Shown: positions 8,546 through 45,192 of the stretch, piece after piece
Position numbering within the stretch: position 1 is the first letter of the stretch
How the letters are laid out: each line of letters begins with the position of its first letter
Assembly: GCA_021784815.1 (NCBI GenBank)
Contig: JAJYHK010000011.1
Location: forward strand, 10,954 to 74,953
Source of the DNA: a bacterium
Lineage (GTDB): Bacteria; Patescibacteriota; Minisyncoccia; Phycocordibacterales; Phycocordibacteraceae
Length of the DNA stretch: 64,000 nt
Reading direction: 5' to 3'
The notes under the pieces: generated by a model
The model's input: the letters and a program-made list of their open reading frames with translations, nothing else
Database searches by the model: none
Told to the model about the DNA's origin: nothing
Program-made: the position numbers and the translations under genes

Positions 8546-8929
8546 ATGAGTGAAACAGCAAACGAACCGAACTGTATCTTTTGCAAGATTGTGCGTCGCG
8601 AAGCGCCATCGTTCACAGTGTACGAAGACGACGACTTCATCGCGTTTCTGGATATTCATCCGCACGCGCCTGGCCACGTGCAGGTGATTCCCAAGACGCA
8701 TTATCGCTGGGTATGGGACGTACCTGGGGCGGGCACATACTTTGAGGTGGTGCGTGCCGTTGCGCTCGCGCAACGAAAGGCGTTTGGAACGGAGTGGATT
8801 ATCTCTCGGATCGTCGGCGACGAAGTTCCGCATGCGCACATCTGGGTCTTCCCCGCCGACGGCGCGGGCAATGCGAATGATTTTAAAAGGAATGCAGAAA
8901 AAATCAGCCGTGCGCTCGCGCGCCACTGA
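8546..8929 (+). CDS. HIT family (histidine triad) protein
   Basis: NCIFCKI...HPHAPGHVQVIPK triad. The ORF starts at 8459; ATG at 8546 (MSETANEPNCIFCKI) was chosen. Confidence 0.8.
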   Translation: MSETANEPNCIFCKIVRREAPSFTVYEDDDFIAFLDIHPHAPGHVQVIPKTHYRWVWDVPGAGTYFEVVRAVALAQRKAFGTEWIISRIVGDEVPHAHIWVFPADGAGNANDFKRNAEKISRALARH

Positions 8930-10911: not shown

Positions 10912-12327
10912 CTACTCTTGTCGCCAGTCGACGAACTGCCACTGTGTCGAGGTGACGGGCGTAAAGGGGGGCGGATTCGTTGAATTTTGACGATCGAAGG
11001 CGGAGGTGCCATTCGAGTAGCCGGACCATCCGGAACAGCCGCCGCCGCCGCCGTACCACCAGTAGGTAATCGGCCGCATAGAAGAGACGATCGTACCGAG
11101 TATGTCGAGGGTCGACTTGCTGCCGTACGCGCTGCATGGGTACATGTTCATCCCGAACGCGCCCGATTGGGCGACAAATATGCCATCGAGGGTGAGGTCG
11201 GCGGGCGCCGTGGGATTAATGAGGACGCTGTGTGATGCGATTGCTGTGAGGCCTGAGGTGCCATCAAAGGCCGTGTAAGTGAGGTTGTTGGTGAGCTGAA
11301 TGTTCGGGTAGACGCCCGGTGTCGTCACGTTTGCGGCGACGACCGTCACTTTCCCCGAGATGGACCCCTCCATCCATACATTATCTTCGACAAAAATGAG
11401 GCCGCAGTTCGCCGGGATGGTGTAGGTGCCGAGCAGGGTTTCTGCGGTAATGAGCCCGTAGTCCTGCTTGTTATAGCCGTAAACCCCGTCAACGGGATAC
11501 GAGCGGATGCTCTTGCTCACGTCGGTCACCTTGTAGACGGTGACCGTGCCGTCGCCATTAAAGACGAGATGGTAGCCGAGATAGTACTGCTTCGAAGTCG
11601 AAATGCGCGGGAAGTAGAGTCCTTCGCTCTGGGCGACCGACTTAAGTGAGGAGAAGTTCGAGGCAATCGCGGCAAAATCGGTCTGCGGGGTCGGGTAGCT
11701 CCAGAGGTCTTGATTGGTACCGCTGCCGAAGACGCCCGGCTCGGTCTGGTTCCCTTGGCAGCCGTAGCTCGGATCGCAGGTCCATGTCGTAACCGAAGAG
11801 GTGACCGGCGCGTTTGGGTTGCCGTCCATGCGAATGCCACCGTTGCTGTGGACGGGCCCGTAAATAGGACCGCCCCCGAACCAGACGCTTGAATTGAGTA
11901 TCATGTTGTAGCGCGCGACCGAGGGCTGGGCGTAGCGCGCCCAGAGCGTCGCCGATACATTGGGAGCGTCGGCGGGGACGCCCTTGCTCGTCACGTCGAT
12001 TGACTGCACGGCATTGCATGCTTCGTTGCCGACGACCGAGAGCGTGTACGTGCCCGCGTTCTGCCCTTCTCCGTTCACATAGGGAACGATAAAGGGGCCG
12101 TTGTGGCCAGTGTGATCCTGGGTATCGCCCGGGTAGTGCGAGAGAAGCCAGCGGTAGTACTCGAGCCCGGCTTCCGCGATGTTAAACGCCTCGGATTGCG
12201 CGCGGACGAACTCCTGCGCGCGATTTTGCTCGAGCACGAATCCGGAGAGGCCGACAATCACCGCAAAAAAGACGGCGCCAAAAACGAGAACAAGCAGCAT
12301 GACAGAGCCTCCGCGATAGCGTTTCAT
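10912..12327 (-). CDS. PilX-N-like large pilus-associated protein (TM anchor plus Gly/Thr-rich secreted domain)
   Basis: N-terminus RGGSVMLLVLVFGAVFFAVIVGLSG resembles the PilX N-terminal domain. Last gene of the minus-strand pilus operon. Confidence 0.45.
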   Translation of the reverse strand: MKRYRGGSVMLLVLVFGAVFFAVIVGLSGFVLEQNRAQEFVRAQSEAFNIAEAGLEYYRWLLSHYPGDTQDHTGHNGPFIVPYVNGEGQNAGTYTLSVVGNEACNAVQSIDVTSKGVPADAPNVSATLWARYAQPSVARYNMILNSSVWFGGGPIYGPVHSNGGIRMDGNPNAPVTSSVTTWTCDPSYGCQGNQTEPGVFGSGTNQDLWSYPTPQTDFAAIASNFSSLKSVAQSEGLYFPRISTSKQYYLGYHLVFNGDGTVTVYKVTDVSKSIRSYPVDGVYGYNKQDYGLITAETLLGTYTIPANCGLIFVEDNVWMEGSISGKVTVVAANVTTPGVYPNIQLTNNLTYTAFDGTSGLTAIASHSVLINPTAPADLTLDGIFVAQSGAFGMNMYPCSAYGSKSTLDILGTIVSSMRPITYWWYGGGGGCSGWSGYSNGTSAFDRQNSTNPPPFTPVTSTQWQFVDWRQE

Positions 12328-15892: not shown

Positions 15893-16084
15893 TTCAATGG
15901 TAGCGTAGCATGCGCATGCGCGCGTAGCGCGCGTTATAAAGAGATACGCGACGGCCGCAAGCCGCCGCGCAGTCTTCTTCCCATCGCCTTTTGTTGCACC
16001 TCCCGCTTCAATCCGCAAAACCATGCTTGCGCGTTCAAGCGGGGCGGAAACGGACGATTCGATAGGTCGTCCGTTGCCCCGAGT

Positions 16085-16306
16085 TCAGGTGTAGGTCATC
16101 GGCTGGACGTCTTTTGCGGCTCGGCAGCCCGCAAAGAGCTGAGCCGCAAGTTCTGGTTCTCCGCCCGCGGACAGATACTCAGCCTGTCGGTGGAGCGCTC
16201 GCGCTTGCAACTGCCGATAACCATCTTCGGACAAGCCGAGCATGATTTCACCTGCTGGTGCGGTCGTGGTCTCGGACATTTCCCACCCATAAAGAAAAAG
16301 CATCAC
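16085..16306 (-). CDS. hypothetical small protein between pilB and pilC
   Basis: 73-aa ORF in operon orientation. No motif and no clear RBS. Confidence 0.2.
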   Translation of the reverse strand: MMLFLYGWEMSETTTAPAGEIMLGLSEDGYRQLQARALHRQAEYLSAGGEPELAAQLFAGCRAAKDVQPMTYT

Positions 16307-24375: not shown

Positions 24376-25512
24376 TTATCGCAAATACCGTTTCCCCTTG
24401 AGCGGGTCCGGCAGGTAGGATTCCGTACCGTACTTTTCATAGCCCTTGCCGTAGTCGAGCTCTTTCATGAGTTTGGTCACCGGGTTGCGGATTTTCTTCG
24501 GAATGGGGAGGTTTCCGAGCGCGTGCACATCGGACTGCGCTGCCAGCAGCGCGTCATACGCGCTGCGGTCCTTTTTCGCCTGAGCGAGATAGGCGACGCC
24601 GTGCGCGAGATTGATCGCGCACTCCGGATAGCCGATCGTTTCGCAGGCGCGGAAGACGGCATTTGCGACGACGAGCGCGGTCGGCTGCGCAAGACCCACG
24701 TCCTCGCTCGCGAAGACCACCATGCGTCGGGCGATGAAGAGCGGGTCCTCCCCGGCCTCGACCATGCGCGCCAAATAATAGAACGCAGCATCCGGTTGTG
24801 AAGCGCGCATGCTTTTAATAAAGGCGCTGATGGTGTCGTAGTGCTCCTCGCCCTTTTTGTCGTAGCGCAGGTGCGGCGATTCGAGTGCCCTCGAGAGCGT
24901 GTCGGCTGTAATTTCTCCGTACAGGCTCTGGGCGCCCTCAAGGAGGCCGAGCGCTCGGCGGGCGTCGCCATTGGCGTAGGTCGCGAGCCAGTCGAAGGCG
25001 GCTTTGGGCACTTTGAGCTTTGTGCGCTTCACGAGCGCCCTGAGCGAGTCGTCCGAAAGCAGCTCGAGCACGAAGACGCGGCAGCGCGAGAGAAGCGCGG
25101 AAATGACCTCGAAGGACGGGTTTTCAGTGGTTGCGCCGATAAGCGTGAGCTCGCCGCTCTCGACGTAGGGGAGCAAAAAATCCTGCTGTGCCTTGTTGAA
25201 GCGATGGATTTCATCCAAAAAGAGAACCTTTGACTTACCGTGCGTATCGAGCTCGACGATTTTACGGATATCGTCCTTCCCCGCCGACACCGCCGAAAGC
25301 TCAAAGAGCTCCGCATCAAGCGCGCGGGCGTAGATGCGCGCGATGGTGGTCTTTCCTGCTCCGGGCGGTCCCCAGAGGATAAAGGAGAAGAGATGTTTCT
25401 TCTCAATCGCGGCGCGCAGCGGCTTCCCTTCCCCGATGAGGTGCTCTTGTCCGACCACTTCGTCGAGCGTTTGGGGTCGAACCCGAGCGGCAAGCGGCTC
25501 CATAAGCTCCAT
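24376..25512 (-). CDS. rarA: replication-associated recombination protein A (AAA+ ATPase RarA/MgsA)
   Basis: LWGPPGAGKTT Walker A, sensor motifs and the MgsA C-terminal domain. ATG at 25512 (MELMEPLAARVRPQTLDEVVGQEHL). Confidence 0.85.
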   Translation of the reverse strand: MELMEPLAARVRPQTLDEVVGQEHLIGEGKPLRAAIEKKHLFSFILWGPPGAGKTTIARIYARALDAELFELSAVSAGKDDIRKIVELDTHGKSKVLFLDEIHRFNKAQQDFLLPYVESGELTLIGATTENPSFEVISALLSRCRVFVLELLSDDSLRALVKRTKLKVPKAAFDWLATYANGDARRALGLLEGAQSLYGEITADTLSRALESPHLRYDKKGEEHYDTISAFIKSMRASQPDAAFYYLARMVEAGEDPLFIARRMVVFASEDVGLAQPTALVVANAVFRACETIGYPECAINLAHGVAYLAQAKKDRSAYDALLAAQSDVHALGNLPIPKKIRNPVTKLMKELDYGKGYEKYGTESYLPDPLKGKRYLR

Positions 25513-25595
25513 GGTACTCTCCTTCCCGAGCGATACAACGGACCGACGTTCCTCGGCAGCGCGCGTATGGTGCCCGCTCGCTGTGCTCGTGAGCT

Positions 25596-25611
25596 CCTCG
25601 CAGTTGCGGAC
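25596..25611 (+). repeat. 16-bp motif CCTCGCAGTTGCGGAC, copy 1 of 4
   Basis: Same orientation as the copies at 26892, 27115 and 29984. It is followed by a ~200-bp region homologous to 27131-27320. Confidence 0.7.
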
Positions 25612-25952
25612 CGGCAGCGGATCGGCAAATGCCAAGAATCCGGGGGCTTTCCGAACAAGCCGAACACGGATTTGGCATTTCTGGCGTGTTCGGTTTCTGT
25701 CAAAAATGTTACAAATGTTACACGAATACGCGATATCGGGGATGTAACATTTGTGAAGAAATGCGCCATAAGCACTAGACTTTTTAAAGAAATGCGTGGC
25801 GTTTTGTGCACCTACCGCAGCTTGATGAAAAAAGTATTTACGCAATTTCCCGATCATAGTCTAGTTCAGTACTCAAACCGTATTTAAAAAGGCGAAATGC
25901 GCAGGAAATCCTTATTTTAAGGGTCTTTTATCGAGCTACCATCGCGTGACAT

Positions 25953-25980
25953 TGACATAAGAAAGTAGTCATCGTATTAT
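25953..25980 (+). promoter_or_regulatory. sigma70-like promoter (TTGACA, 16 nt, TATTAT)
   Basis: Consensus -35 and -10 elements about 45 nt upstream of the 26028 ORF. Confidence 0.5.
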
Positions 25981-26027
25981 ATATGTAGGTTTTGAGTCCT
26001 GTGCATTTCGCCCAGGAGAACAGCACA

Positions 26028-26189
26028 ATGGAGAAGACCATGCTGAACAAGATGATTGCCGGTTTCGGCCGGTTACCAGACTTCGAACGCCTCCTCCTTG
26101 GAGTGGTCGTTCTCGGAGGCGGCTGTTTCGCCTTCGCACTCGCCAGCATCGAAGGTCTGTCGATCATTCAGGGACGCCCCCTGTTCTGA
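26028..26189 (+). CDS. small hydrophobic protein (53 aa)
   Basis: AGGAGA RBS 8 nt upstream, TM helix VVVLGGGCFAFALASI. Flanked by a consensus promoter and terminator. Confidence 0.4.
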   Translation: MEKTMLNKMIAGFGRLPDFERLLLGVVVLGGGCFAFALASIEGLSIIQGRPLF

Positions 26190-26210
26190 TTGCGCAGACC
26201 CCAACCAAAC

Positions 26211-26241
26211 CCCTGCCTCAAGAATCGAGGCAGGGGTTTAT
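26211..26241 (+). terminator. rho-independent terminator (cccctgcctc-aagaatc-gaggcagggg then TTTA)
   Basis: Perfect 10-bp stem. Confidence 0.6.
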
Positions 26242-26687
26242 ATGCCTGCCATACTCAGGCGAGTTTCTCTTATTTAGGGGTATTCCATGAGTATTGAGCA
26301 TCCATCATCACAAGCACCTAAACCCGATCCCTCAGAGAACCAAGATATGAGCTGGATGAATCTGGCCGAGAGAGGTTCAGTTCAAATGTGGAAGTCGTGG
26401 CGAGCGAGATGGAAGTGCGTGCTGCCGGTGCCGCTTCATCTGTGGAGACGGCATGCCCATCGCTGGGGCAGATCCAAGCGGCGGAGGCTACTCTCGAGCA
26501 AAGCCAACAAAGACTAGAGGCCGCACTACGCTCTACGAATCAAACAACGCCGGAACGCAGCGCTACGATACGGGAACGGGTGTAATGAGCATTGGACAAA
26601 AGCAAAGCTGAAGGCGGGCCTGGCCTTCGCGGGTCTCGGAGCGGCTTCACTCGGGGGAGTACCGATTCCCCGCTGAACCCCACTGAC

Positions 26688-26816
26688 CTCGATATACGCA
26701 AGTATGCGAAGTATCTGCTCAAAAACGGCTCCCGAGAGGAGAGGCGCGAGCTGCTCGGGCATCTCCGCAACCGACTCATTCTACTGAAGGACAGAGAAAT
26801 CGCGCCCGCAGATTAG
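26688..26816 (+). pseudogene. 3' fragment of a second large serine recombinase gene (decayed paralog of 28616..29941)
   Basis: Encodes [42 protein letters not shown]; the recombinase C-terminus is [41 protein letters not shown]. About 75% nt identity over about 125 bp. No upstream recombinase domains remain. Confidence 0.6.
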
Positions 26817-26848
26817 CCCGGACAAGTCTCGCAGTTGTGAACTTTTTC

Positions 26849-26889
26849 CGAGGCCTCGCGGTCTAAAATCGGGTCTCTGACTGCTGTGC
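26849..26889 (+). repeat. about 41-bp direct repeat (cgaggcctcgcggtctaaaatcgggtctctgactgctgtgc), copy of the tRNA-Gly-flanking sequence at 30005..30046
   Basis: About 80% identity to 30005-30046. Flanked by 16-bp motif copies (degenerate at 26828, canonical at 26892). Confidence 0.65.
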
Positions 26890-26891
26890 CC

Positions 26892-26907
26892 CCTCGCTGT
26901 TGCGGAC
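26892..26907 (+). repeat. 16-bp motif CCTCGCTGTTGCGGAC, copy 2 of 4
   Basis: Direct repeat family. Confidence 0.7.
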
Positions 26908-27114
26908 TGCACCAAGCGAGGCAACATAAGGGCGGTTTTGGCGCTCGTCGCCTCACCGATTTGACCCCTCGCAGTCATGATCAGAATGGGACATTTGGGA
27001 CACCATTCGCGCATAATAGGACACTGTCCCGTTTATACGATTCTAGCAAGCATTTGCAGGGTATTCCCATGATTCGGAGCGCGGGACGGGCGTCCCGTCC
27101 GTGTCCCAAGCGAG

Positions 27115-27130
27115 CCTCGCAGTTGCGGAC
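27115..27130 (+). repeat. 16-bp motif CCTCGCAGTTGCGGAC, copy 3 of 4
   Basis: Followed by tgttacaaatattacac and tgtaacat/ccgaacacg repeats homologous to 25620-25790. Confidence 0.7.
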
Positions 27131-27592
27131 TGAAATGTTACAAATATTACACGTTTTGAGCACTTTTGGGGTGTAACATTTTGGACAAAATCTGGCTTGG
27201 AGAAAGGATAGATCGCTCGGAAAGGGCTGTAACATTCTGGCTGTCGCGGCCGCAATTCCGAACAATCCGAACACGACAGAGGCCATTCCGAACGTTCGAA
27301 ACGTGTTCGGTTACCAGGAACGCCACTCGAAGACGGTCGTTTAAAATGCCCAAAAATGCCAATTTTCTGACAATCGAGATTGCGAGATGTGTTTCATTCA
27401 TGCGTCAGAAAACGGCGCAAATGCTAGGGATGAGACAAGTGAGACACTTTTACGCGTTTCATTTTGCGTCTCAAAATTGGCATTTTATCGCTATGCCACG
27501 AAGGCACCCCACCGCCCGTCTCGCCCACATCACCCGTGCGGAGCGGATAACGACAAATTGGACAAAAATGAGCACCGGGAGCGAGTGTAACG

Positions 27593-28141
27593 TTATTCAG
27601 GCAATATCATCATATTGCCGTATGGGTCTCCCGGCGTTGCTTCGCCCCAGTTCATGCCCGACCAGCACGCCGGCTGCGCGTACGGAGAATTCGCCGGCCG
27701 CGGTTCTTCGGTGTCCCAATACAAGACCGCGTACGTGCCGCTCGGCGAACCGCAGGTTGCTGGTCCTCCGGTAAAATTTACATAACGGAACGTGCAGCCG
27801 CTGAGCGTCGTCTCAACCGGAACCTGACTTATATAACCTCCTGTCTGCAGCGCAGAGAGCCAACTGTACCCGCTACCAGAATTACCCGATTGCCAATTCC
27901 ACCAGCAGCCGCTGCCGCCTCCCGATTGATTCAAGTACGGATACTGGCCGTTATGATCGTTCGCATACATTTCAAGAGCGGTGCGTATGCTCTGAATGTC
28001 GGAAATGCGCGCCGCATCGCGCGCTTTACTACGCGCGGTACTTAAGCTCGCAAGTATGATGCTTGAGAGAACCCCAATAATCGCAATGACCACCAAGAGT
28101 TCGATTAGGGTAAACCCGCGATACGAACGTGCACGCCTCAT
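27593..28141 (-). CDS. pilA: type IVa major pilin (PilA-like)
   Basis: MRRARSYRG|FTLIELLVVIAIIGVLSSIILASLSTARSKARDAARISDIQSIRTALEMY. ATG at 28141. Cys residues for a C-terminal disulfide are present. Confidence 0.8.
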   Translation of the reverse strand: MRRARSYRGFTLIELLVVIAIIGVLSSIILASLSTARSKARDAARISDIQSIRTALEMYANDHNGQYPYLNQSGGGSGCWWNWQSGNSGSGYSWLSALQTGGYISQVPVETTLSGCTFRYVNFTGGPATCGSPSGTYAVLYWDTEEPRPANSPYAQPACWSGMNWGEATPGDPYGNMMILPE

Positions 28142-28425
28142 TGTGTTTGCTGGCCTGGGATACGATCTGTTTGGGAGAAATTTTTTACGATTTGTCCTGA
28201 CGAAGTACCAAGTAACATCGGCACGGCAAACGCAAGAATGATCGCGCCAACGGCAATGCCAATGAGCACGCGTGTCGCACCCTTTTCGTCCTTCGCCAAT
28301 CCCCATCCGATAACGAGCTTCGCCATGCCGCGGGACTCGCTCGTCACTCCCCGTCGAGGCGTATATTGTTCCTCCTCCTGAAATTGAATGCCACTACCGC
28401 CTGCGCCTAAGTCCATATGCTTCAT
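28138..28425 (-). CDS. hypothetical small membrane protein upstream of pilin
   Basis: 95-aa ORF with one TM helix. Its stop overlaps the pilin start. No clear RBS. Confidence 0.3.
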   Translation of the reverse strand: MKHMDLGAGGSGIQFQEEEQYTPRRGVTSESRGMAKLVIGWGLAKDEKGATRVLIGIAVGAIILAFAVPMLLGTSSGQIVKNFSQTDRIPGQQTQ

Positions 28426-28615
28426 ATTAATACCACACCCACGTCTGCCGACATTAATCTAATGGGGACATACGGGCCTGCCTGCTACACGCCGTTTTAT
28501 TTTCAGCTAGACTTATAGCGGTACCGGTGCCCTAGAGATACCAACTCACCCCTCATGGACTCCTCCGAGGGGTTGCGTCATTCCTTGTACCTGTTAGCAG
28601 CTAATCAAGGAATGT

Positions 28616-29941
28616 ATGGGAACAGCAACGGTTCAGGGTGGTTTCGGGGCGACCACTGCCCCACCGGAGGCAGTGCCAGTCCGGTATTGCCTGTATGCTC
28701 GAAAATCAACGGAGAGCGAAGAACAGCAGGTGTTGAGCATTGAGAGCCAGGTGAAGGAAATGCTCGCCATGGCAGAGAATGAAAAATTGGAGATTGTGGA
28801 GGTGAAGCGTGAGTCGCACTCAGCCAAGGAAGCCGGAGCGCGTCCGGTATTCAACGAGATCGTGGAGGAGATACGCACTGGAAAGTTCAACGGCATCCTG
28901 ACCTGGGCACCAGATCGCATCAGCCGCAACGCCGGAGACTTGGGCAGGATCGTAGACCTGATGGACCAAGGACTACTGCGGGATATCCGTACATACGGTC
29001 AGCGCTTCACGAACAATCCGAACGAGAAATTCCTCCTCATGATATTGGGAAGCCAGGCGAAGCTTGAGAACGACCAGAAGCGCATCAACGTGAAGCGCGG
29101 ACTGCGCGCCCGAGCCGAGATGGGCCTTTGGCCCGGTATCGCGCCGACGGGATACTTGAACGACCAACGCAAGGATCATCGCTGCGAGATACTTGTCGAT
29201 CCTGTCCGCTTCCCTATCATCAAGCAGGTCTTCGAAAAGATCGGCGTCGAGCGCTGGAGTGGCCGCAAGGTATATGCATGGCTCAAGAATGACGTGCGGT
29301 TCGTCTCTCGCTTCGGCAAGGGCATGAACCTCGGTACCTTGTACAAAATAATCAAGAATCCCTTCTACTGCGGTGTCTTCGAGTACCCGCGCGGAAGTGG
29401 CTCCTGGTATACCGGCAAGCATACGCCACTCATCACCCAAGAGTTATTCCAAGCCGTGCAAGAAAAGATCGCCGAAGAGAATCGCCCCAAACATCGCTTC
29501 AAGGAGTGGCACTTCACCAAACTCTTCATCTGCGGATACTGCGGCAGCGGCATCACGGCGCAGGAGAAGACGAAACTCCTTGCGACCGGCGAGCCCGCCA
29601 CCTACGTCTATTATTCCTGCTCCCGTGCCAAGGACGCGCACTGCAAGAATCCGTACCTGCGCGAGGAGAAAGTCATCGACCAGCTTGCTGGCCTAATTGA
29701 CCAGATATCGCTTGATGAAATTGGTGCCCGTCATCTCATCGAGCGCGAGGTATCGCGATACAACAAGCTGCGGGCTGAAGTTGAGGGGACGACCGACGTG
29801 ATCAAGGCGAAGGAGATGGACATCCGCAAATACGCCAAGTATCTCCTGAAGAACGGCTCGAGAGAAGAAAAACGCGAGCTGCTCGGGCATCTGCGCGACC
29901 GACTCATCCTGAACGATCGGGTGATCACGCTCGCCGATTAG
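28616..29941 (+). CDS. large serine recombinase (resolvase catalytic domain, recombinase domain, zinc ribbon, coiled coil)
   Basis: [12 protein letters not shown] catalytic Ser motif, recombinase domain, CGYCGSG...C zinc ribbon; 441 aa. Confidence 0.85.
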
Positions 29942-29983
29942 CACAACAGCGCGACATCCGTCGCGTCTTTGTGCGCGAACGAC

Positions 29984-29999
29984 CCTCGGAGTTGCGGAC
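29984..29999 (+). repeat. 16-bp motif CCTCGGAGTTGCGGAC, copy 4 of 4
   Basis: 43 bp downstream of the recombinase stop. Confidence 0.7.
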
Positions 30000-30004
30000 C
30001 AAAA

Positions 30005-30046
30005 TCGAGGCCTTGGAGTCTAAAAACCGCGTGCTGACCGCTGTGC
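30005..30046 (+). repeat. about 41-bp direct repeat (att-like) abutting and overlapping the tRNA-Gly 3' end
   Basis: cgaggccttggagtctaaaaaccgcgtgctgaccgctgtgc. The last 3 nt are the tRNA discriminator and terminal GC. Confidence 0.65.
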
Positions 30047-30114
30047 GGGATAGGAGAATCGAACTCCTACTCTCAGTTTGGAAAACTGACGTTCTGCCAT
30101 TAAACTAATCCCGC
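30044..30114 (-). tRNA. tRNA-Gly (anticodon UCC)
   Basis: Manual fold: acceptor gcgggat/atcccgc, anticodon stem tcagt/actga, loop tttCCaa (anticodon tcc), T-arm aggag-ttcgatt-ctcct. No encoded CCA. Confidence 0.8.
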
Positions 30115-30208
30115 ATCCGTTCAGCATAGCAGAACGCGTATCGGGGCGCCTGTATGTCTCCCTTGCCAGGCTCTGTATTTATTGCTCGTTTTGCGCTAGC
30201 GTAAGGGA

Positions 30209-31351
30209 ATGAACCGCTTGCCCCTGTGGACGAGCCTGGTTGCGCTTTTTGCGAGCGTTCTTCTGTTGGTTGCCGTGAGCCGCGCGACCATTCGCCATGC
30301 GGATCTCTTAGCGCAGGTGTCTCGCGAGACTCCGGCAGGACAGGCCTCCTCAAGCGCGGTTGCGTTCGGGCGTGCCGCCACGAGTACGCGCACAGCTGGC
30401 ATGCTGACAGCCGCAACGTCTTCGCCCGCGCGCCCGCGCGGATCAAAAACGAGCACGGCAGCCGTCTCTAATAAAAAAGCATCCTCGCCCGCGGCGGTGT
30501 CAGCAGCAAACTTTGCGAACGCTTCGGCGCGCTTGCGCGCCGCGCTCGTGAATATCATGTGCTATGCGCCGGCGAGTAGCTCGCTCCACTCCATCTCCGG
30601 CAGCGGCGTCATCATTGACCCGAAAGGAATAATCCTTACCAATGCGCATGTAGCACAGTATTTCCTCCTCGCCAATCAGGGCGTCTCATGCGTTATTCGC
30701 GCCGGTACGCCGGCAACCGACCGCTACGATGCTACTATCGAGTACCTCTCCCCTGCTTGGATTGTCGAAAACGCGGGGGTGCTCACCGAACATATGCCTA
30801 CCGGTACGGGCGAGCACGACTACGCACTGCTCGCGATTACGGGAACCACTACCGGCGCGCCGCTTCCCGCTCGGTTTCCTGCAATATCGCTCGCGCTCGC
30901 ACCGCCCCAGGCGGGTGCGGACGTAGTAATCGCCTCATACGGGGCGCAATTTTTGAATCCCGTAGAAATTCAAGACGCTCTTTCGCCGACGGTCGTTTAT
31001 GGCTCCATTAAGGGCATTTTCACTTTTGCAACGAGCTCGGTCGACGTGCTCTCGCTCGGGGGCAGCGCGGCGGCGCAAGAGGGATCGTCCGGTGGCGGCG
31101 TGGTAGACGGGCAAGGCAGGCTCGTGGGACTCATCACGACGAGTACGGTAACCGGCGCAACCGCTACCCGTTCGCTCGACGCGATTACTGCCTCCTACAT
31201 TCGCGCTGACTATGCAGCGCAGGCGGGCACGTCGTTCGATGCGCTTCTCGCGCAGGACCCAGTAATGGCGGCACAGGCCTTTGCGCCGCGTATTCCTGCG
31301 CTCGAAGCAGCCATTTTGGGTGCCAGCACGAGCACGACGCCTCGGGGGTGA
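30209..31351 (+). CDS. trypsin-like serine protease (S1 family, membrane-anchored or secreted, no PDZ domain)
   Basis: Catalytic triad contexts TNAHV, DYALL and GSSGGGVVD. N-terminal TM/signal. Confidence 0.75.
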   Translation: MNRLPLWTSLVALFASVLLLVAVSRATIRHADLLAQVSRETPAGQASSSAVAFGRAATSTRTAGMLTAATSSPARPRGSKTSTAAVSNKKASSPAAVSAANFANASARLRAALVNIMCYAPASSSLHSISGSGVIIDPKGIILTNAHVAQYFLLANQGVSCVIRAGTPATDRYDATIEYLSPAWIVENAGVLTEHMPTGTGEHDYALLAITGTTTGAPLPARFPAISLALAPPQAGADVVIASYGAQFLNPVEIQDALSPTVVYGSIKGIFTFATSSVDVLSLGGSAAAQEGSSGGGVVDGQGRLVGLITTSTVTGATATRSLDAITASYIRADYAAQAGTSFDALLAQDPVMAAQAFAPRIPALEAAILGASTSTTPRG

Positions 31352-31483
31352 GCGGTTGCGGGTTTGGTTGCGGAGCAGGAATCATGTACGCGGTCAGAGT
31401 CGAGTACGCGAACGAAACGCCGTCTCCCGCGAAGCGTCCCCCGATAACGAAGCTCATCTTTTCCTGGCACATAAACATATTTA

Positions 31484-31557
31484 TGGTCGGGACGCCGAGA
31501 CTCGAACTCGGGCTACAACCTCCCAAAGGTCGCGTGCTACCGCTACACCACGTCCCG
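31484..31557 (-). tRNA. tRNA-Pro (anticodon UGG), CCA encoded
   Basis: Manual fold: acceptor cgggacg/cgtcccg, anticodon stem cgacc/ggttg, loop tttGGga (anticodon tgg), T-arm ccgag-ttcgagt-ctcgg, 3' ACCA. Confidence 0.8.
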
Positions 31558-31587
31558 ATACCCGCATCGTACCAGGTTTCGCAGGAT

Positions 31588-31983
31588 TTAGGCGATTTGC
31601 GGGAAAAATCGGACGAACGCCTTGCCATCGCGCCTCCTGAGCCATACCAGGCAGCCATCAACTTGCCAGTCCCCCTCCCAGCCCGAATCTAGTACGTACC
31701 ACTCGGCGGTTCGCGCCACCTTGCGGATCTTGTACGCATGGAGATTCACCGAGGGATCGTAGACATCCTCGCCATTTTCCATACGCGGAAACTCGTTAAT
31801 CACGAGTGTCTTTACCTCGACGATGTGGAGAATATCCTCTTCGCAAGCAATAACATCAAGCTCGCCCGTCTTCCGCGTGACATTGCGGGCGATGATCTGC
31901 ATGCCACGTCGGCGAAGGTATTCCACTGCGACCGATTCCCCCAGGGCGCCTATCTCCTTGCGGTTTCTAGAGGATAAATCCAT
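31588..31983 (-). CDS. YraN/UPF0102 family endonuclease-like protein
   Basis: GESVAVEYLRRRGMQIIARNVTRKTGELDVIACEEDILHIVEVKT, the typical UPF0102 core. Confidence 0.7.
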   Translation of the reverse strand: MDLSSRNRKEIGALGESVAVEYLRRRGMQIIARNVTRKTGELDVIACEEDILHIVEVKTLVINEFPRMENGEDVYDPSVNLHAYKIRKVARTAEWYVLDSGWEGDWQVDGCLVWLRRRDGKAFVRFFPQIA

Positions 31984-32317
31984 GGCTTTTAAAAGTATGG
32001 CTTACTTACTTATTAGATTCTCGGACTCTCCACAATTTCCACAGGATTCTCCCCTGTCCTTTATCCCCATAATCCACATGGATATCCACACTTTTGCGCA
32101 GAGGGCAAATCTGTTCCTTGAGAGGCTGCACAGGGATTAATCCGCCCTCTTCCTAGATCGTTTTCTCCGAAGACTGGCAATCGGCCAATGGTGTGTCATC
32201 GGGAGCTGAGTTTGCACGCCCGGCAAGGCGCCGATCGCGCTTCGTTTAGGTCGTCTCCCAGTGAGCGGCCCCCTGGCTTCCGCCTGGGAACCGTTCGGCG
32301 ATTTGCTCGCTATTCGG

Positions 32318-32388
32318 TGCGGATAGGGAGAATCGAACTCCCGTCTCATCCTTGGCAAGGACGTGTTCTACCACTAAACCATATCCGC
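32318..32388 (-). tRNA. tRNA-Gly (anticodon GCC)
   Basis: Manual fold: acceptor gcggata/tatccgc, anticodon stem cgtcc/ggatg, loop ttGCCaa (anticodon gcc), T-arm gggag-ttcgatt-ctccc. Confidence 0.8.
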
Positions 32389-32458
32389 GCTGGTGGCCAT
32401 TTTCGCATAAAACACCCATATTCACAAGACGATTTGTGGCGCGGCAGACGGATCTTAT

Positions 32459-33298
32459 TTAGGATTGCCAGAAGTAAAACGGCAGCGAAAGGCGCTTCTT
32501 GAGCTTCCGTGCCTTAGGGCCGTTGTGTTCAAGTGTGAGCCGTATGTTCGTCCGCGTTTCGAAAATCCCAACCAATTCCGGTAAGAAGTCAGCCACACCT
32601 CTTCCAGAGGCATAGAGCGAATCAATATGGCTCGTAATGCCTTTAGGCAGTCGCACATTCAAAACGTAGTCGCCGAGGATTTTGAGGTGGTCGGTTCGCA
32701 GGAGTCCGCCCACATGCCCGGCGTGTATTTGCAGAAACTGGTTTTGGTAGGCGTATTTAAATGCCAAGTCCGCTGCAGTCGAGCCCCCCACCGTATGGTA
32801 AGCGTGCACTTTCTGTTCGGCAAAATGCCGGTAATACCCATCCTCGCTCTCTTTGCGCTCCGGCAGGTACGCCCAGAAGTTGTGAGGGGTGTAGACAAAT
32901 ACCTGCCCATCCTGTTCGAGCTCCTCAAGCCCGAGCACGAGCGTCTTCCAGTACGCGTCAAGATTAGCCAGCGAGGTGAACCGATACGCGAGCCGCTCGC
33001 CAGGTGCGAGGCTCGGCGCAATAGGGTGCTGTACGAGGTTTCGAACAACCCGAGCCCACTCCTGGTCGACCCTGACCACCATGCCCGCTTTCGCTAATAC
33101 GCCGCACCGGATCAGGTTGCCAACGGCCTTGTAAACAGCTCGTGGGCCCTGCTTCCCTCCCGCTTTCAGGTCTGCGGCGAGTACCTTCATGGTGGCGGGT
33201 GCCTCTATAAGCCGCTCTACTACCCGATCCTCAAGGCCCCTCTGTTTCCCGCAAAGCATTGGACTAACTATAACACCGATTTTGAACAGAAAGTGCAA
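32459..33298 (-). CDS. hypothetical protein with N-terminal winged-helix-like domain
   Basis: 279 aa. Predicted wHTH (VVERLIEAPATMKVLAADL...AVYKAVGNLIRCGVL). C-terminal domain not recognised. Flanked by tRNA genes. Confidence 0.45.
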   Translation of the reverse strand: MHFLFKIGVIVSPMLCGKQRGLEDRVVERLIEAPATMKVLAADLKAGGKQGPRAVYKAVGNLIRCGVLAKAGMVVRVDQEWARVVRNLVQHPIAPSLAPGERLAYRFTSLANLDAYWKTLVLGLEELEQDGQVFVYTPHNFWAYLPERKESEDGYYRHFAEQKVHAYHTVGGSTAADLAFKYAYQNQFLQIHAGHVGGLLRTDHLKILGDYVLNVRLPKGITSHIDSLYASGRGVADFLPELVGIFETRTNIRLTLEHNGPKARKLKKRLSLPFYFWQS

Positions 33299-33503
33299 AA
33301 AAGCGCGAAACTAACGTTATACTCACTGCGATACTAGTATTTTTGTAAGATACATTACCGTTCCGCGCCTATCGGCCACTTCCCTGGATATGTTGGTCGG
33401 AGATGTTACACGCGGAACATTGTAGTCCCCGCACGGCATCCGCCATAAGCCGCAACGTTCGTTTCAGAAGCGGCCTGTATGTGCAACGTTTATTCTGCTT
33501 TTG

Positions 33504-33575
33504 TGCCCCGGCCAGGATTCGAACCCAGAATAGCTGTTCCGAAGACAGCCGTGATATCCATTTCACCACCGGGGC
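33504..33575 (-). tRNA. tRNA-Arg (anticodon UCG)
   Basis: Manual fold: acceptor gccccgg/ccggggc, D-stem gtga/tcac, anticodon stem gctgt/acagc, loop ctTCGga (anticodon tcg), T-loop ttcgaat. Confidence 0.75.
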
Positions 33576-44123: not shown

Positions 44124-45192
44124 ACTGCGGATTGCAGGAACTGCCGATCGGGCAGTTGCGGAATGGGTTTGCCGCGCCGCGCACTTCAAAGTGCACATGC
44201 GGACCGGTAGTCCAACCGGTCATGCCGATGTAGCCGATGATCTGGCCCTTTGAAACGGTTTCGCCGGGGTGTACGGCATCGCGCTTCATGTGCGCATAAA
44301 GCGTCTGGACGCCGTTTTTGAGGTTGATGACGACGTAATTGCCGTAGCCGCCATCCCAGGCGCCCGTATCGCGCGCAATAATGACGGTACCGGCTGCGGC
44401 GGCATGGATGGGGGTGCCGATCGGCGCGCCGATGTCGACGGCGTCCCAGCCGTGAATTCCTTGGGTAATGATGCCACCGGGTACCGGGTTCCCGAAGAAA
44501 CCGTTAAGCGCCGGGCCGCTACCGCCGAGGTACGGTTCGTGCACGCCCGGTGCATTGGATGCCCGGCTAGAAGACGCGTGCTTCGGCGCGCCGCTGCTTG
44601 GACTTGGAACAGAGAGTTCGCCACCCGGAATCGTGATTTTGGTGCCGACCGGGAGCGGCTTCTCGGGATCGAGGCCGTTGTACTCGGCGATCTCGGTCGG
44701 ATCAGCGTGGTACCTGGTCGCAATTGAGGCAAGCGTCTCGCCTTTCCCGATGGTGTGCTCAATCCCCGACACGGGAAGGATAATGAGGGTGTCTCCCGGT
44801 CGAATATCGTTCGGGCCGCTCAGGTTATTAGCCCAAATGATCGTGTTTATGGAGACCCCGAACATACGAGCGATTCCCCAAAGGGTGTCGCCGCGCCGCA
44901 CGACATAGGTGGAAATCCGGTCCGACGGTGTCGTCGAAGCTATGTCGGCCAAGGTGCCGGAGGGGCCGGTATAGGCAACAAGCGCGCCGCCAGAGGTGGC
45001 GAGCGCTATTGGGGCGCTTAGGTTCGGATTACTATTGGTCGGGGCAACGAGCGCTGGTGTCGAAGCGCTCGGAACGGCAGCGCCGGTAGCTGCAGCTACG
45101 TCCGTCGAGAACGGCCAAAACGCCTTCGCCTTGCTCGGAAGCATGGACGCCGCAAGCGCAACCAGGGCGAATCCTGCTAGTAGGAGCGCCAC
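44122..45192 (-). CDS. LysM plus M23 family peptidase (murein endopeptidase)
   Basis: LysM (YVVRRGDTLWGIARMFGVSINTIIWANN; second LysM) and M23 motifs (HGWDAVDIGAP...GPHVHFEV). Confidence 0.8.
   Translation of the reverse strand: MALLLAGFALVALAASMLPSKAKAFWPFSTDVAAATGAAVPSASTPALVAPTNSNPNLSAPIALATSGGALVAYTGPSGTLADIASTTPSDRISTYVVRRGDTLWGIARMFGVSINTIIWANNLSGPNDIRPGDTLIILPVSGIEHTIGKGETLASIATRYHADPTEIAEYNGLDPEKPLPVGTKITIPGGELSVPSPSSGAPKHASSSRASNAPGVHEPYLGGSGPALNGFFGNPVPGGIITQGIHGWDAVDIGAPIGTPIHAAAAGTVIIARDTGAWDGGYGNYVVINLKNGVQTLYAHMKRDAVHPGETVSKGQIIGYIGMTGWTTGPHVHFEVRGAANPFRNCPIGSSCNPQ

Follow-up and report, generated by a model that had tools for sequence, protein, structure and literature searches.

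The question raised by this locus is how the 3' end of a large serine recombinase gene, together with the sequence that separates this gene from a neighbouring tRNA-Gly gene, came to be present twice, once beside the tRNA and once further out. In the original prediction, this part of the window (the whole stretch of DNA analysed, 64,000 nt long) was read as a case of serial integration of related elements at one tRNA-proximal site, and that reading is now supported by comparative loci, by the separate evolution of the two recombinase copies and by the left ends of the islands themselves. Two related small integrative islands, each with a large serine recombinase of its own, very probably lie in tandem, bounded by the RarA gene on one side and by the 3' end of a tRNA-Gly(TCC) gene on the other. 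All data come from metagenome-assembled genomes, and the ends of the islands were placed by comparison with 90 related loci (L001 and so on).

The intact recombinase gene and the remnant

The intact recombinase gene (28616..29941, + strand) specifies a protein of 441 aa with the Pfam domains Resolvase, Recombinase and Zn_ribbon_recom, and is the integrase of the younger island. Its catalytic domain (PF00239, E = 3.9e-20) covers residues 26-171 and is followed by PF07508 (E = 3.8e-12) and then a zinc ribbon (PF13408, E = 6.8e-9), beyond which 85 C-terminal residues remain; large serine recombinases also have a coiled-coil motif, which governs the choice of sites that synapse. Among solved structures, the protein matches those of SPbeta SprA/YokA and of the A118 integrase, and its 'ARKS' segment aligns with 'RRS' of SprA. 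It is the sole recombinase of the younger island and is of the serine, not the tyrosine, type.

The second, decayed 3' end noticed originally was confirmed. Nucleotides 26691-26817 align over 127 nt with the 3' end of the intact gene (29819-29942) at 77.2% identity (E = 2e-23), and the end of ORF 26592-26816 matches the C-terminus of the 441-aa protein at 37 of 55 residues (E = 6e-20), rising to 34 of 41 (83%) over the last 41 codons. The remnant proper (26655..26816, + strand) comprises the last 51 codons and the stop, with a tblastn match to aa 391-441 at 70% identity; the catalytic, recombinase and zinc-ribbon domains have been deleted. A tblastn search for further recombinase fragments, upstream of the remnant as had been proposed and elsewhere in the window, found none besides it.

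Colinearity extends past the stop codon. A degenerate 18-mer motif at 26827-26844 (+ strand, four mismatches to the 18-mer consensus) corresponds to 29984-30001 at 12 of 18 positions, and the 42-bp block R' (26848-26889) corresponds to R (30005-30046) at 31 of 42 (74%), so that motif and R follow the remnant in the same order as they follow the intact gene, as originally described. A pairwise alignment of 26688-26910 against 29815-30050 was colinear, with 73% identity over ungapped columns; neither identity below 60% nor non-colinear matches appeared. One detail needs correction: the degenerate motif had been placed forty bp downstream of the remnant, whereas it begins 12 bp after the stop codon. 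In the intact copy, stop and motif are separated by a 32-bp terminator hairpin, which is absent from the remnant and appears as a gap in the alignment, and this accounts for the difference of about 32 bp.

Two similar segments that lie 3.1 kb apart, colinear and in direct orientation, could also be explained by one element having duplicated its own recombinase 3' end and att region as a local segment, after which the copies drifted apart neutrally. The manner of divergence speaks strongly against this. Over the 40 alignable codons there are 20 synonymous and 6 non-synonymous differences, giving a dN/dS of 0.04 with synonymous sites near saturation (pS = 0.67), and the divergence therefore accrued while both genes were under purifying selection. 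This shows that the remnant and the intact gene are two separately evolved functional genes and not local duplicates. In addition, R' resembles the R of L001, in another genome (36/42, core included), more than it does its neighbour in the window, and the older copy has a left end of its own. A local duplication is accordingly very improbable. By itself the remnant is a relic of an ordinary kind; its interest lies in the class of enzyme and in the attP-like joint that follows it.

Island ends and the recombination core

A 16-mer, CTCGCAGTTGCGGACT, occurs five times with ≤2 mismatches between 25597 and 30000 (at 25597, 26828, 26893, 27116 and 29985), in each case on the + strand, where about one copy would be expected by chance in the whole window. 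At ≤3 mismatches there are six matches, a number reached by none of 100 shuffled sequences, the sixth being a three-mismatch match at 44149. Comparison with the related loci gives these copies their places. In 20 relatives of the Gly, Arg and Val clades the right end runs through CTGAC(C/T)GCT-GTGC directly into a tRNA, GTGC being the last four bases of the abutted tRNA gene, and in right ends where both could be mapped 58-59 nt separate the start of the motif from the tRNA 3' end. On the left, six islands open with GTGC-CCCCTC(G/A)C(T/G)GT...G(A/G)ACTG, which is motif 1. An island thus opens with GTGC and the left arm (motif 1); motif 2 comes about 220 bp further in and is followed by the cargo, the recombinase gene, motif 3, R and a closing GTGC. 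The distance from motif 1 to motif 2, about 222 bp, is the same in the left ends of related islands. Both ends of the islands lie at a core of 4 bp, GTGC, that also forms the tRNA 3' end, and the crossover presumably takes place inside it.

Motif and R are always found directly 3' of a tRNA, and they might be taken for a conserved chromosomal trailer or terminator of tRNA-Gly, the second copy then marking a tRNA gene that was lost or moved. This is refuted by five unoccupied tRNA-Gly sites at which both are missing (window 32316, a tRNA-Gly(gcc); L001 10618; L007 12583; L014 2865; L015 13381) and which have nothing in common on the non-tRNA side. Instead, motif and R travel with the recombinase and adjoin tRNA-Gly(tcc), (gcc), (ccc) and tRNA-Arg(tct) in different genomes; since they occur beside four different tRNA genes and are missing from unoccupied sites, they are DNA of the island. 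Neither at 26886, directly after R', nor at 25570 was a tRNA or tRNA fragment found by ARAGORN or Rfam. The region of motif and R, in which an Rfam scan found the tRNA alone, also folds no more stably than shuffled sequence on either strand (z -0.04 to -2.0), and a trailer of this kind retains hardly any likelihood.

The flank of an unoccupied tRNA-Gly(tcc) in L014 is the same as the left junction of the L001 island, which provides a set of attB, attL and attR. Among attB (L014), attL and attR (L001) and the joints in the window, only GTGC is common. For serine integrases the obligatory identity between att sites is limited to the 2-bp crossover, and attP and attB have no long block of identity; the sites described here fit that pattern.

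Two related islands were found in one MAG, on contig CAWEXP010000008.1, at tRNA-Arg(tct) (L013 8575-12434) and at tRNA-Gly(gcc) (L014 7741-12220). Their homology runs from exactly GTGC to exactly GTGC, with recombinase genes 95% and left ends 99% identical, and the pair points to recent mobility and a relaxed choice of tRNA.

Some further properties of the motif and the arms were considered and set aside. Motif 1 as a mimic of the tRNA 3' end is a weak idea at most, the best alignments being only about 2-3 sd above shuffled controls. Covariation in a CCTCGC/GCGAGG hairpin after motif 1 includes some compensatory pairs (CCTCAC/GTGAGG) and is inconsistent across islands. Dyad symmetry of the P and P' arms, inspected by eye, is confined to a GCGG/CCGC tetramer at +/-17-20 in some islands and is unconserved.

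Layout of the two islands

The younger island occupies 26890-30042. Its left end (26890..27132, + strand) consists of motif 1, which forms the P' arm (26892-26909), a conserved block with GGGACA repeats and motif 2 (27115-27132), and over about 240 bp after the 26893 motif it is homologous to the left ends of islands in L001, L006, L013, L014 and L015. The 16-mer at 26893 is preceded by GTGC-CC, in keeping with the six islands whose left ends start at GTGC, and the core at the joint between the two islands is placed at 26886..26889 (+ strand), giving an attP-type order of P arm, core and P' arm. The succession motif-R-motif had first been seen as a mirror of the motif-R-tRNA arrangement at the intact element. 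This does not hold, because the canonical 16-mer is the left arm of the younger island, and motif-R-motif is therefore an attP-like joint between two islands.

The cargo of the younger island (27593..28425, - strand) specifies a type IV pilin-like protein (Pfam N_methyl, E = 1e-8; real start at about 28141) and, upstream of it, a membrane protein of 95 aa. The recombinase gene comes next, and the right end (29984..30042, + strand) is made up of motif 3 (29984-30001) and R, the P arm (30005-30042). The tRNA-Gly(TCC) gene (30043..30114, - strand; ARAGORN, and Rfam tRNA at 70 bits) follows at once, its 3' end 101 nt from the end of the recombinase gene, and its last four bases read GTGC on the + strand (30043-30046) and form the recombination core.

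Conserved non-coding sequence was seen in the left regions of the islands. At 26980-27070 there are GGGACA/GAGACA direct repeats and a GGACA-CT-GTCC palindrome; 27133-27240 and, in the older island, 25693-25762 carry direct and inverted repeats of ATGTTACA. These repeats are probably protein-binding sites.

On its outer side the array is flanked by the chromosomal gene for the AAA+ ATPase RarA/MgsA (24376..25512, - strand; Pfam MgsA_C, AAA_assoc_2 and AAA). Although the ORF as listed extends to 25857, the gene really begins with the ATG at 25512, and similarity at the nucleotide level to RarA of L001, L014 and L015 stops at 25503-25524. The left junction of the older island (25570..25584, + strand) lies 57 nt from this start codon and consists of the core GTGC (25570-25573) and the first 11 nt of the left (P') arm, the remaining arm having been deleted. 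Its sequence, GTGCCCGCTCGCTGT, matches the left end of the younger island, GTGCCCCCTCGCTGT, at 14 of 15 positions, and when the 64 kb were searched with ≤2 mismatches this was the only other match (0.17 expected by chance). A GCTGTGC heptamer at 25580 was also considered as the junction and was dropped in favour of the GTGC at 25570, which continues into 11 nt of left arm. After those 11 nt the arm breaks off and is followed by a motif-2-type copy and by the repeats that normally lie 3' of motif 2. This regulatory region (25596..25762, + strand) includes the motif-2-type 18-mer (25596-25613, one mismatch), a CCGAACACG hairpin and the repeats already mentioned; 25703-25752 aligns with L001 5599-5649 at 86% identity, and 25693-25762 with 27122-27191 of the window at 69%.

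Further in, a cargo cassette that is apparently intact (25952..26239, + strand) has a near-consensus promoter-like site (TTGACA-17-TATTAT, 11 of 12 positions matching), an ORF at about 26028-26189 for a small membrane protein of some 53-65 aa, and a 33-nt hairpin with a perfect stem (26207-26239). It looks like a cassette that is still functional and was retained after the integrase was lost. Among 95 loci no homologues of the cargo or of the small ORFs of the older island were found, the pilin N-termini excepted. The right (P) arm of the older island, R' (26848..26885, + strand), is also intact and ends in the conserved CTGACTGCT.

What remains of the older island (25574-26885, 1.3 kb) is thus a promoter-ORF-terminator cassette and a right arm. 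The decay that had been ascribed to this element is real, but it came about mainly by deletions and not by point mutations: at least three are evident, of about 210 bp in the left region, of about 390 recombinase codons with whatever lay upstream of them, and of the terminator hairpin.

The recombinase family, its targets and occupied sites

The recombinase belongs to a large, apparently undescribed family of patescibacterial serine integrases whose insertion sites are the 3' ends of tRNA genes. At least 8000 significant homologues occur in this group (Paceibacteria, Kaiserbacteria, Minisyncoccia and others), with identities of 60-88% among the 120 matches listed, and 459 relatives were found in species-representative genomes. 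In all 61 loci with a full-length relative and a downstream tRNA, the recombinase gene and the first such tRNA converge. The target varies with relatedness to the recombinase of the window. Relatives at least 78% identical to it are almost always at tRNA-Gly, with one at tRNA-Arg; those at 66-74% are at tRNA-Arg, with a 65% copy in L017 at tRNA-Val; those at 62-64% are mainly at tRNA-Met; and those at about 56-63% are mostly at tRNA-Ser and tRNA-Gln, and also at Lys, Arg and other tRNAs. The right arm that abuts the tRNA end is conserved within each clade and specific to it. Known large serine integrases use protein-coding or intergenic targets, with two recognisable attB half-sites.

Cargo beside the recombinase differs from genome to genome. 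Three different cargoes were noted in L003 (6288-7698), L007 (1-7959) and L008 (552-4829), the kinds being a diversity-generating retroelement (bAvd and reverse transcriptase), DNA methyltransferases with phage-like genes, and a pair of MoxR-type AAA_5 and VWA genes.

Arrays are not confined to the window. In L017 (6194-15000) three full-length recombinase genes, 65%, 74% and 58% identical to the query, form a tandem that spans tRNA-Val and tRNA-Arg(tct) and includes an attP-like joint at 11429; one of these islands starts, on its left, directly at the 5' end of tRNA-Val. Joints without a tRNA are present in L018, L019 and L023, and the left arm in L018 and L019 is tRNA-Arg-like. Remnants of recombinase genes truncated at the 5' side occur in L008, L013 and L017. 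Among minor observations, L018 (11441-15341) and L019 (6910) have a right arm followed by a degenerate tRNA-Arg-like fragment in place of the tRNA, and the 3.9-kb island nearest the tRNA in L018 is without a recombinase gene and may be a non-autonomous element. L008 has a stray fragment of a tRNA-Gly T-arm (8757-8777), 113 nt from the real tRNA, and at 16033-16154 a copy of the motif 6 nt upstream of a 33-codon C-terminal remnant of a recombinase, a deletion joint at the motif.

The tandem of the window could then have been formed as follows. The older island would have been the first to insert at tRNA-Gly, and the younger one would later have entered between the right arm of the older island and the tRNA, pushing the older one outwards; the attP-like joint at 26848-26909 would be the product of this second insertion. 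In each event the tRNA gene would be joined at its 3' end to attP (R, GTGC and motif 1) by the recombinase. In the chromosomal site, conservation appears to be confined to the core and the tRNA side, the other half apparently not being sequence-specific, and an occupied site (R, GTGC and tRNA) would present both conserved parts and so be a target for a second island. The lack of a conserved arm outside the tRNA in unoccupied sites may explain how a newcomer is able to reuse an occupied one, and the attP-like joints in arrays (window 26886 and L017 11429) suggest that an occupied site was indeed used as a target. Afterwards the older island would have lost most of its left arm region, about the first 390 recombinase codons and its terminator hairpin. 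Its left arm was presumably once a separate functional end, and is too truncated now for proof. Canonical large serine integrases recombine attP with attB only, attL and attR being inert unless a directionality factor is present; the textbook model therefore does not lead one to expect that an island would enter an occupied site.

A different history would have a single composite island (25574-30042) integrate once, with the remnant and its flanks as old cargo and the tandem made elsewhere, for example by the fusion of two circles. GTGC does lie at both outer junctions, and a variant with just one of the two islands was not found: in viral and metagenome contigs there was neither a circular form nor a population variant that lacks the younger island. 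A search with CTGACYGCTGTGCCCCCTC for circular or further tandem junctions gave no matches in viral contigs and six in metagenome contigs, five of them chance matches and one an ordinary island at tRNA-Arg(cct); the source recombinase protein is present on one contig only. On the other hand, in six other genomes chromosomal DNA comes directly before a left end of the younger type, and the remnant is therefore no part of the intact island. The outer left arm, cut to 11 nt, can hardly be functional now, and a composite would still presuppose the union of two related elements and the decay of the older of them. A composite island is for these reasons unlikely, and two successive insertions at tRNA-Gly(TCC) are preferred.

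Islands that accumulate in tandem at tRNA genes and leave degraded integrases behind are already well described, essentially for tyrosine integrases; accretion by a serine integrase is unusual. The tycheposons of Prochlorococcus are small, cargo-carrying integrative elements beside tRNA genes, in which successive integrations displace older elements from the tRNA and leave fragmented integrase genes; tyrosine recombinases are present in 910 of 937 elements, and a partial tRNA copy lies between neighbours (Hackl et al., bioRxiv 10.1101/2020.12.28.424599). The islands described here resemble them in being small and on the tRNA side, in the outward push of older islands and in the integrase relics, but differ in having a large serine recombinase, a shared core of 4 bp and no tRNA fragment at the joints in the window. 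Islander/TIGER islands at tRNA and tmRNA genes likewise show site-specific insertion that keeps the tRNA intact, and tandem arrays of them are recognised (PMC4383910, PMC12424338). Insertion at a tRNA gene that stays intact, and accretion of arrays with degraded integrases, are shared with the present islands, whereas the displaced tRNA fragment at the far end, which is the signature of those islands, is absent here.

With the large serine integrases of temperate phages and prophage-like elements (SPbeta SprA/YokA, A118/LI Int, phiFC1 and TP21-L) the recombinase shares a three-domain architecture, short att sites and a minimal common core. It differs from them in sequence, being at most 27.5% identical to any phage integrase in a phage collection, in that only the tRNA half of attB is conserved, and in the seeming reuse of occupied sites. 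A large survey of serine integrases does not mention tRNA, and the literature, as far as our incomplete coverage goes, yielded no paper on tRNA-targeting serine integrases in Patescibacteria; an earlier description is possible.

It could tentatively be speculated that a very large, undescribed clade of patescibacterial serine integrases took over the tRNA-3'-end niche of tyrosine integrases, with sub-clades for Gly, Arg, Met, Ser, Gln and other tRNAs. Its members might recognise one half-site (the tRNA) and the 4-bp core, with attR still a target, and the thrice-repeated 16-mer might be the recombinase half-site, possibly derived from a tRNA, the extra copies serving as accessory sites. If true, targeting by one half-site would break the rule that only attP and attB recombine, and would explain the stacked arrays. 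Targeting of tRNA genes, thought typical of tyrosine integrases, has evolved in serine integrases too. The islands also show how the tiny, streamlined genomes of Patescibacteria acquire and lose accessory genes, such as those for pilins, diversity-generating retroelements and methyltransferases, at a small number of tRNA hot spots, and the exact island ends make such islands and their relics recognisable in the annotation of these genomes. Serine integrases are favoured tools of genome engineering, and a family that has the universally conserved end of tRNA as its target, with perhaps any sequence opposite, could be of practical interest.

The tRNA genes downstream of the array form part of a conserved neighbourhood (30043-33575) of tRNA-Gly tcc, a trypsin-like protease, tRNA-Pro, UPF0102, tRNA-Gly gcc and tRNA-Arg, and several of these tRNAs are targets of islands in related genomes.
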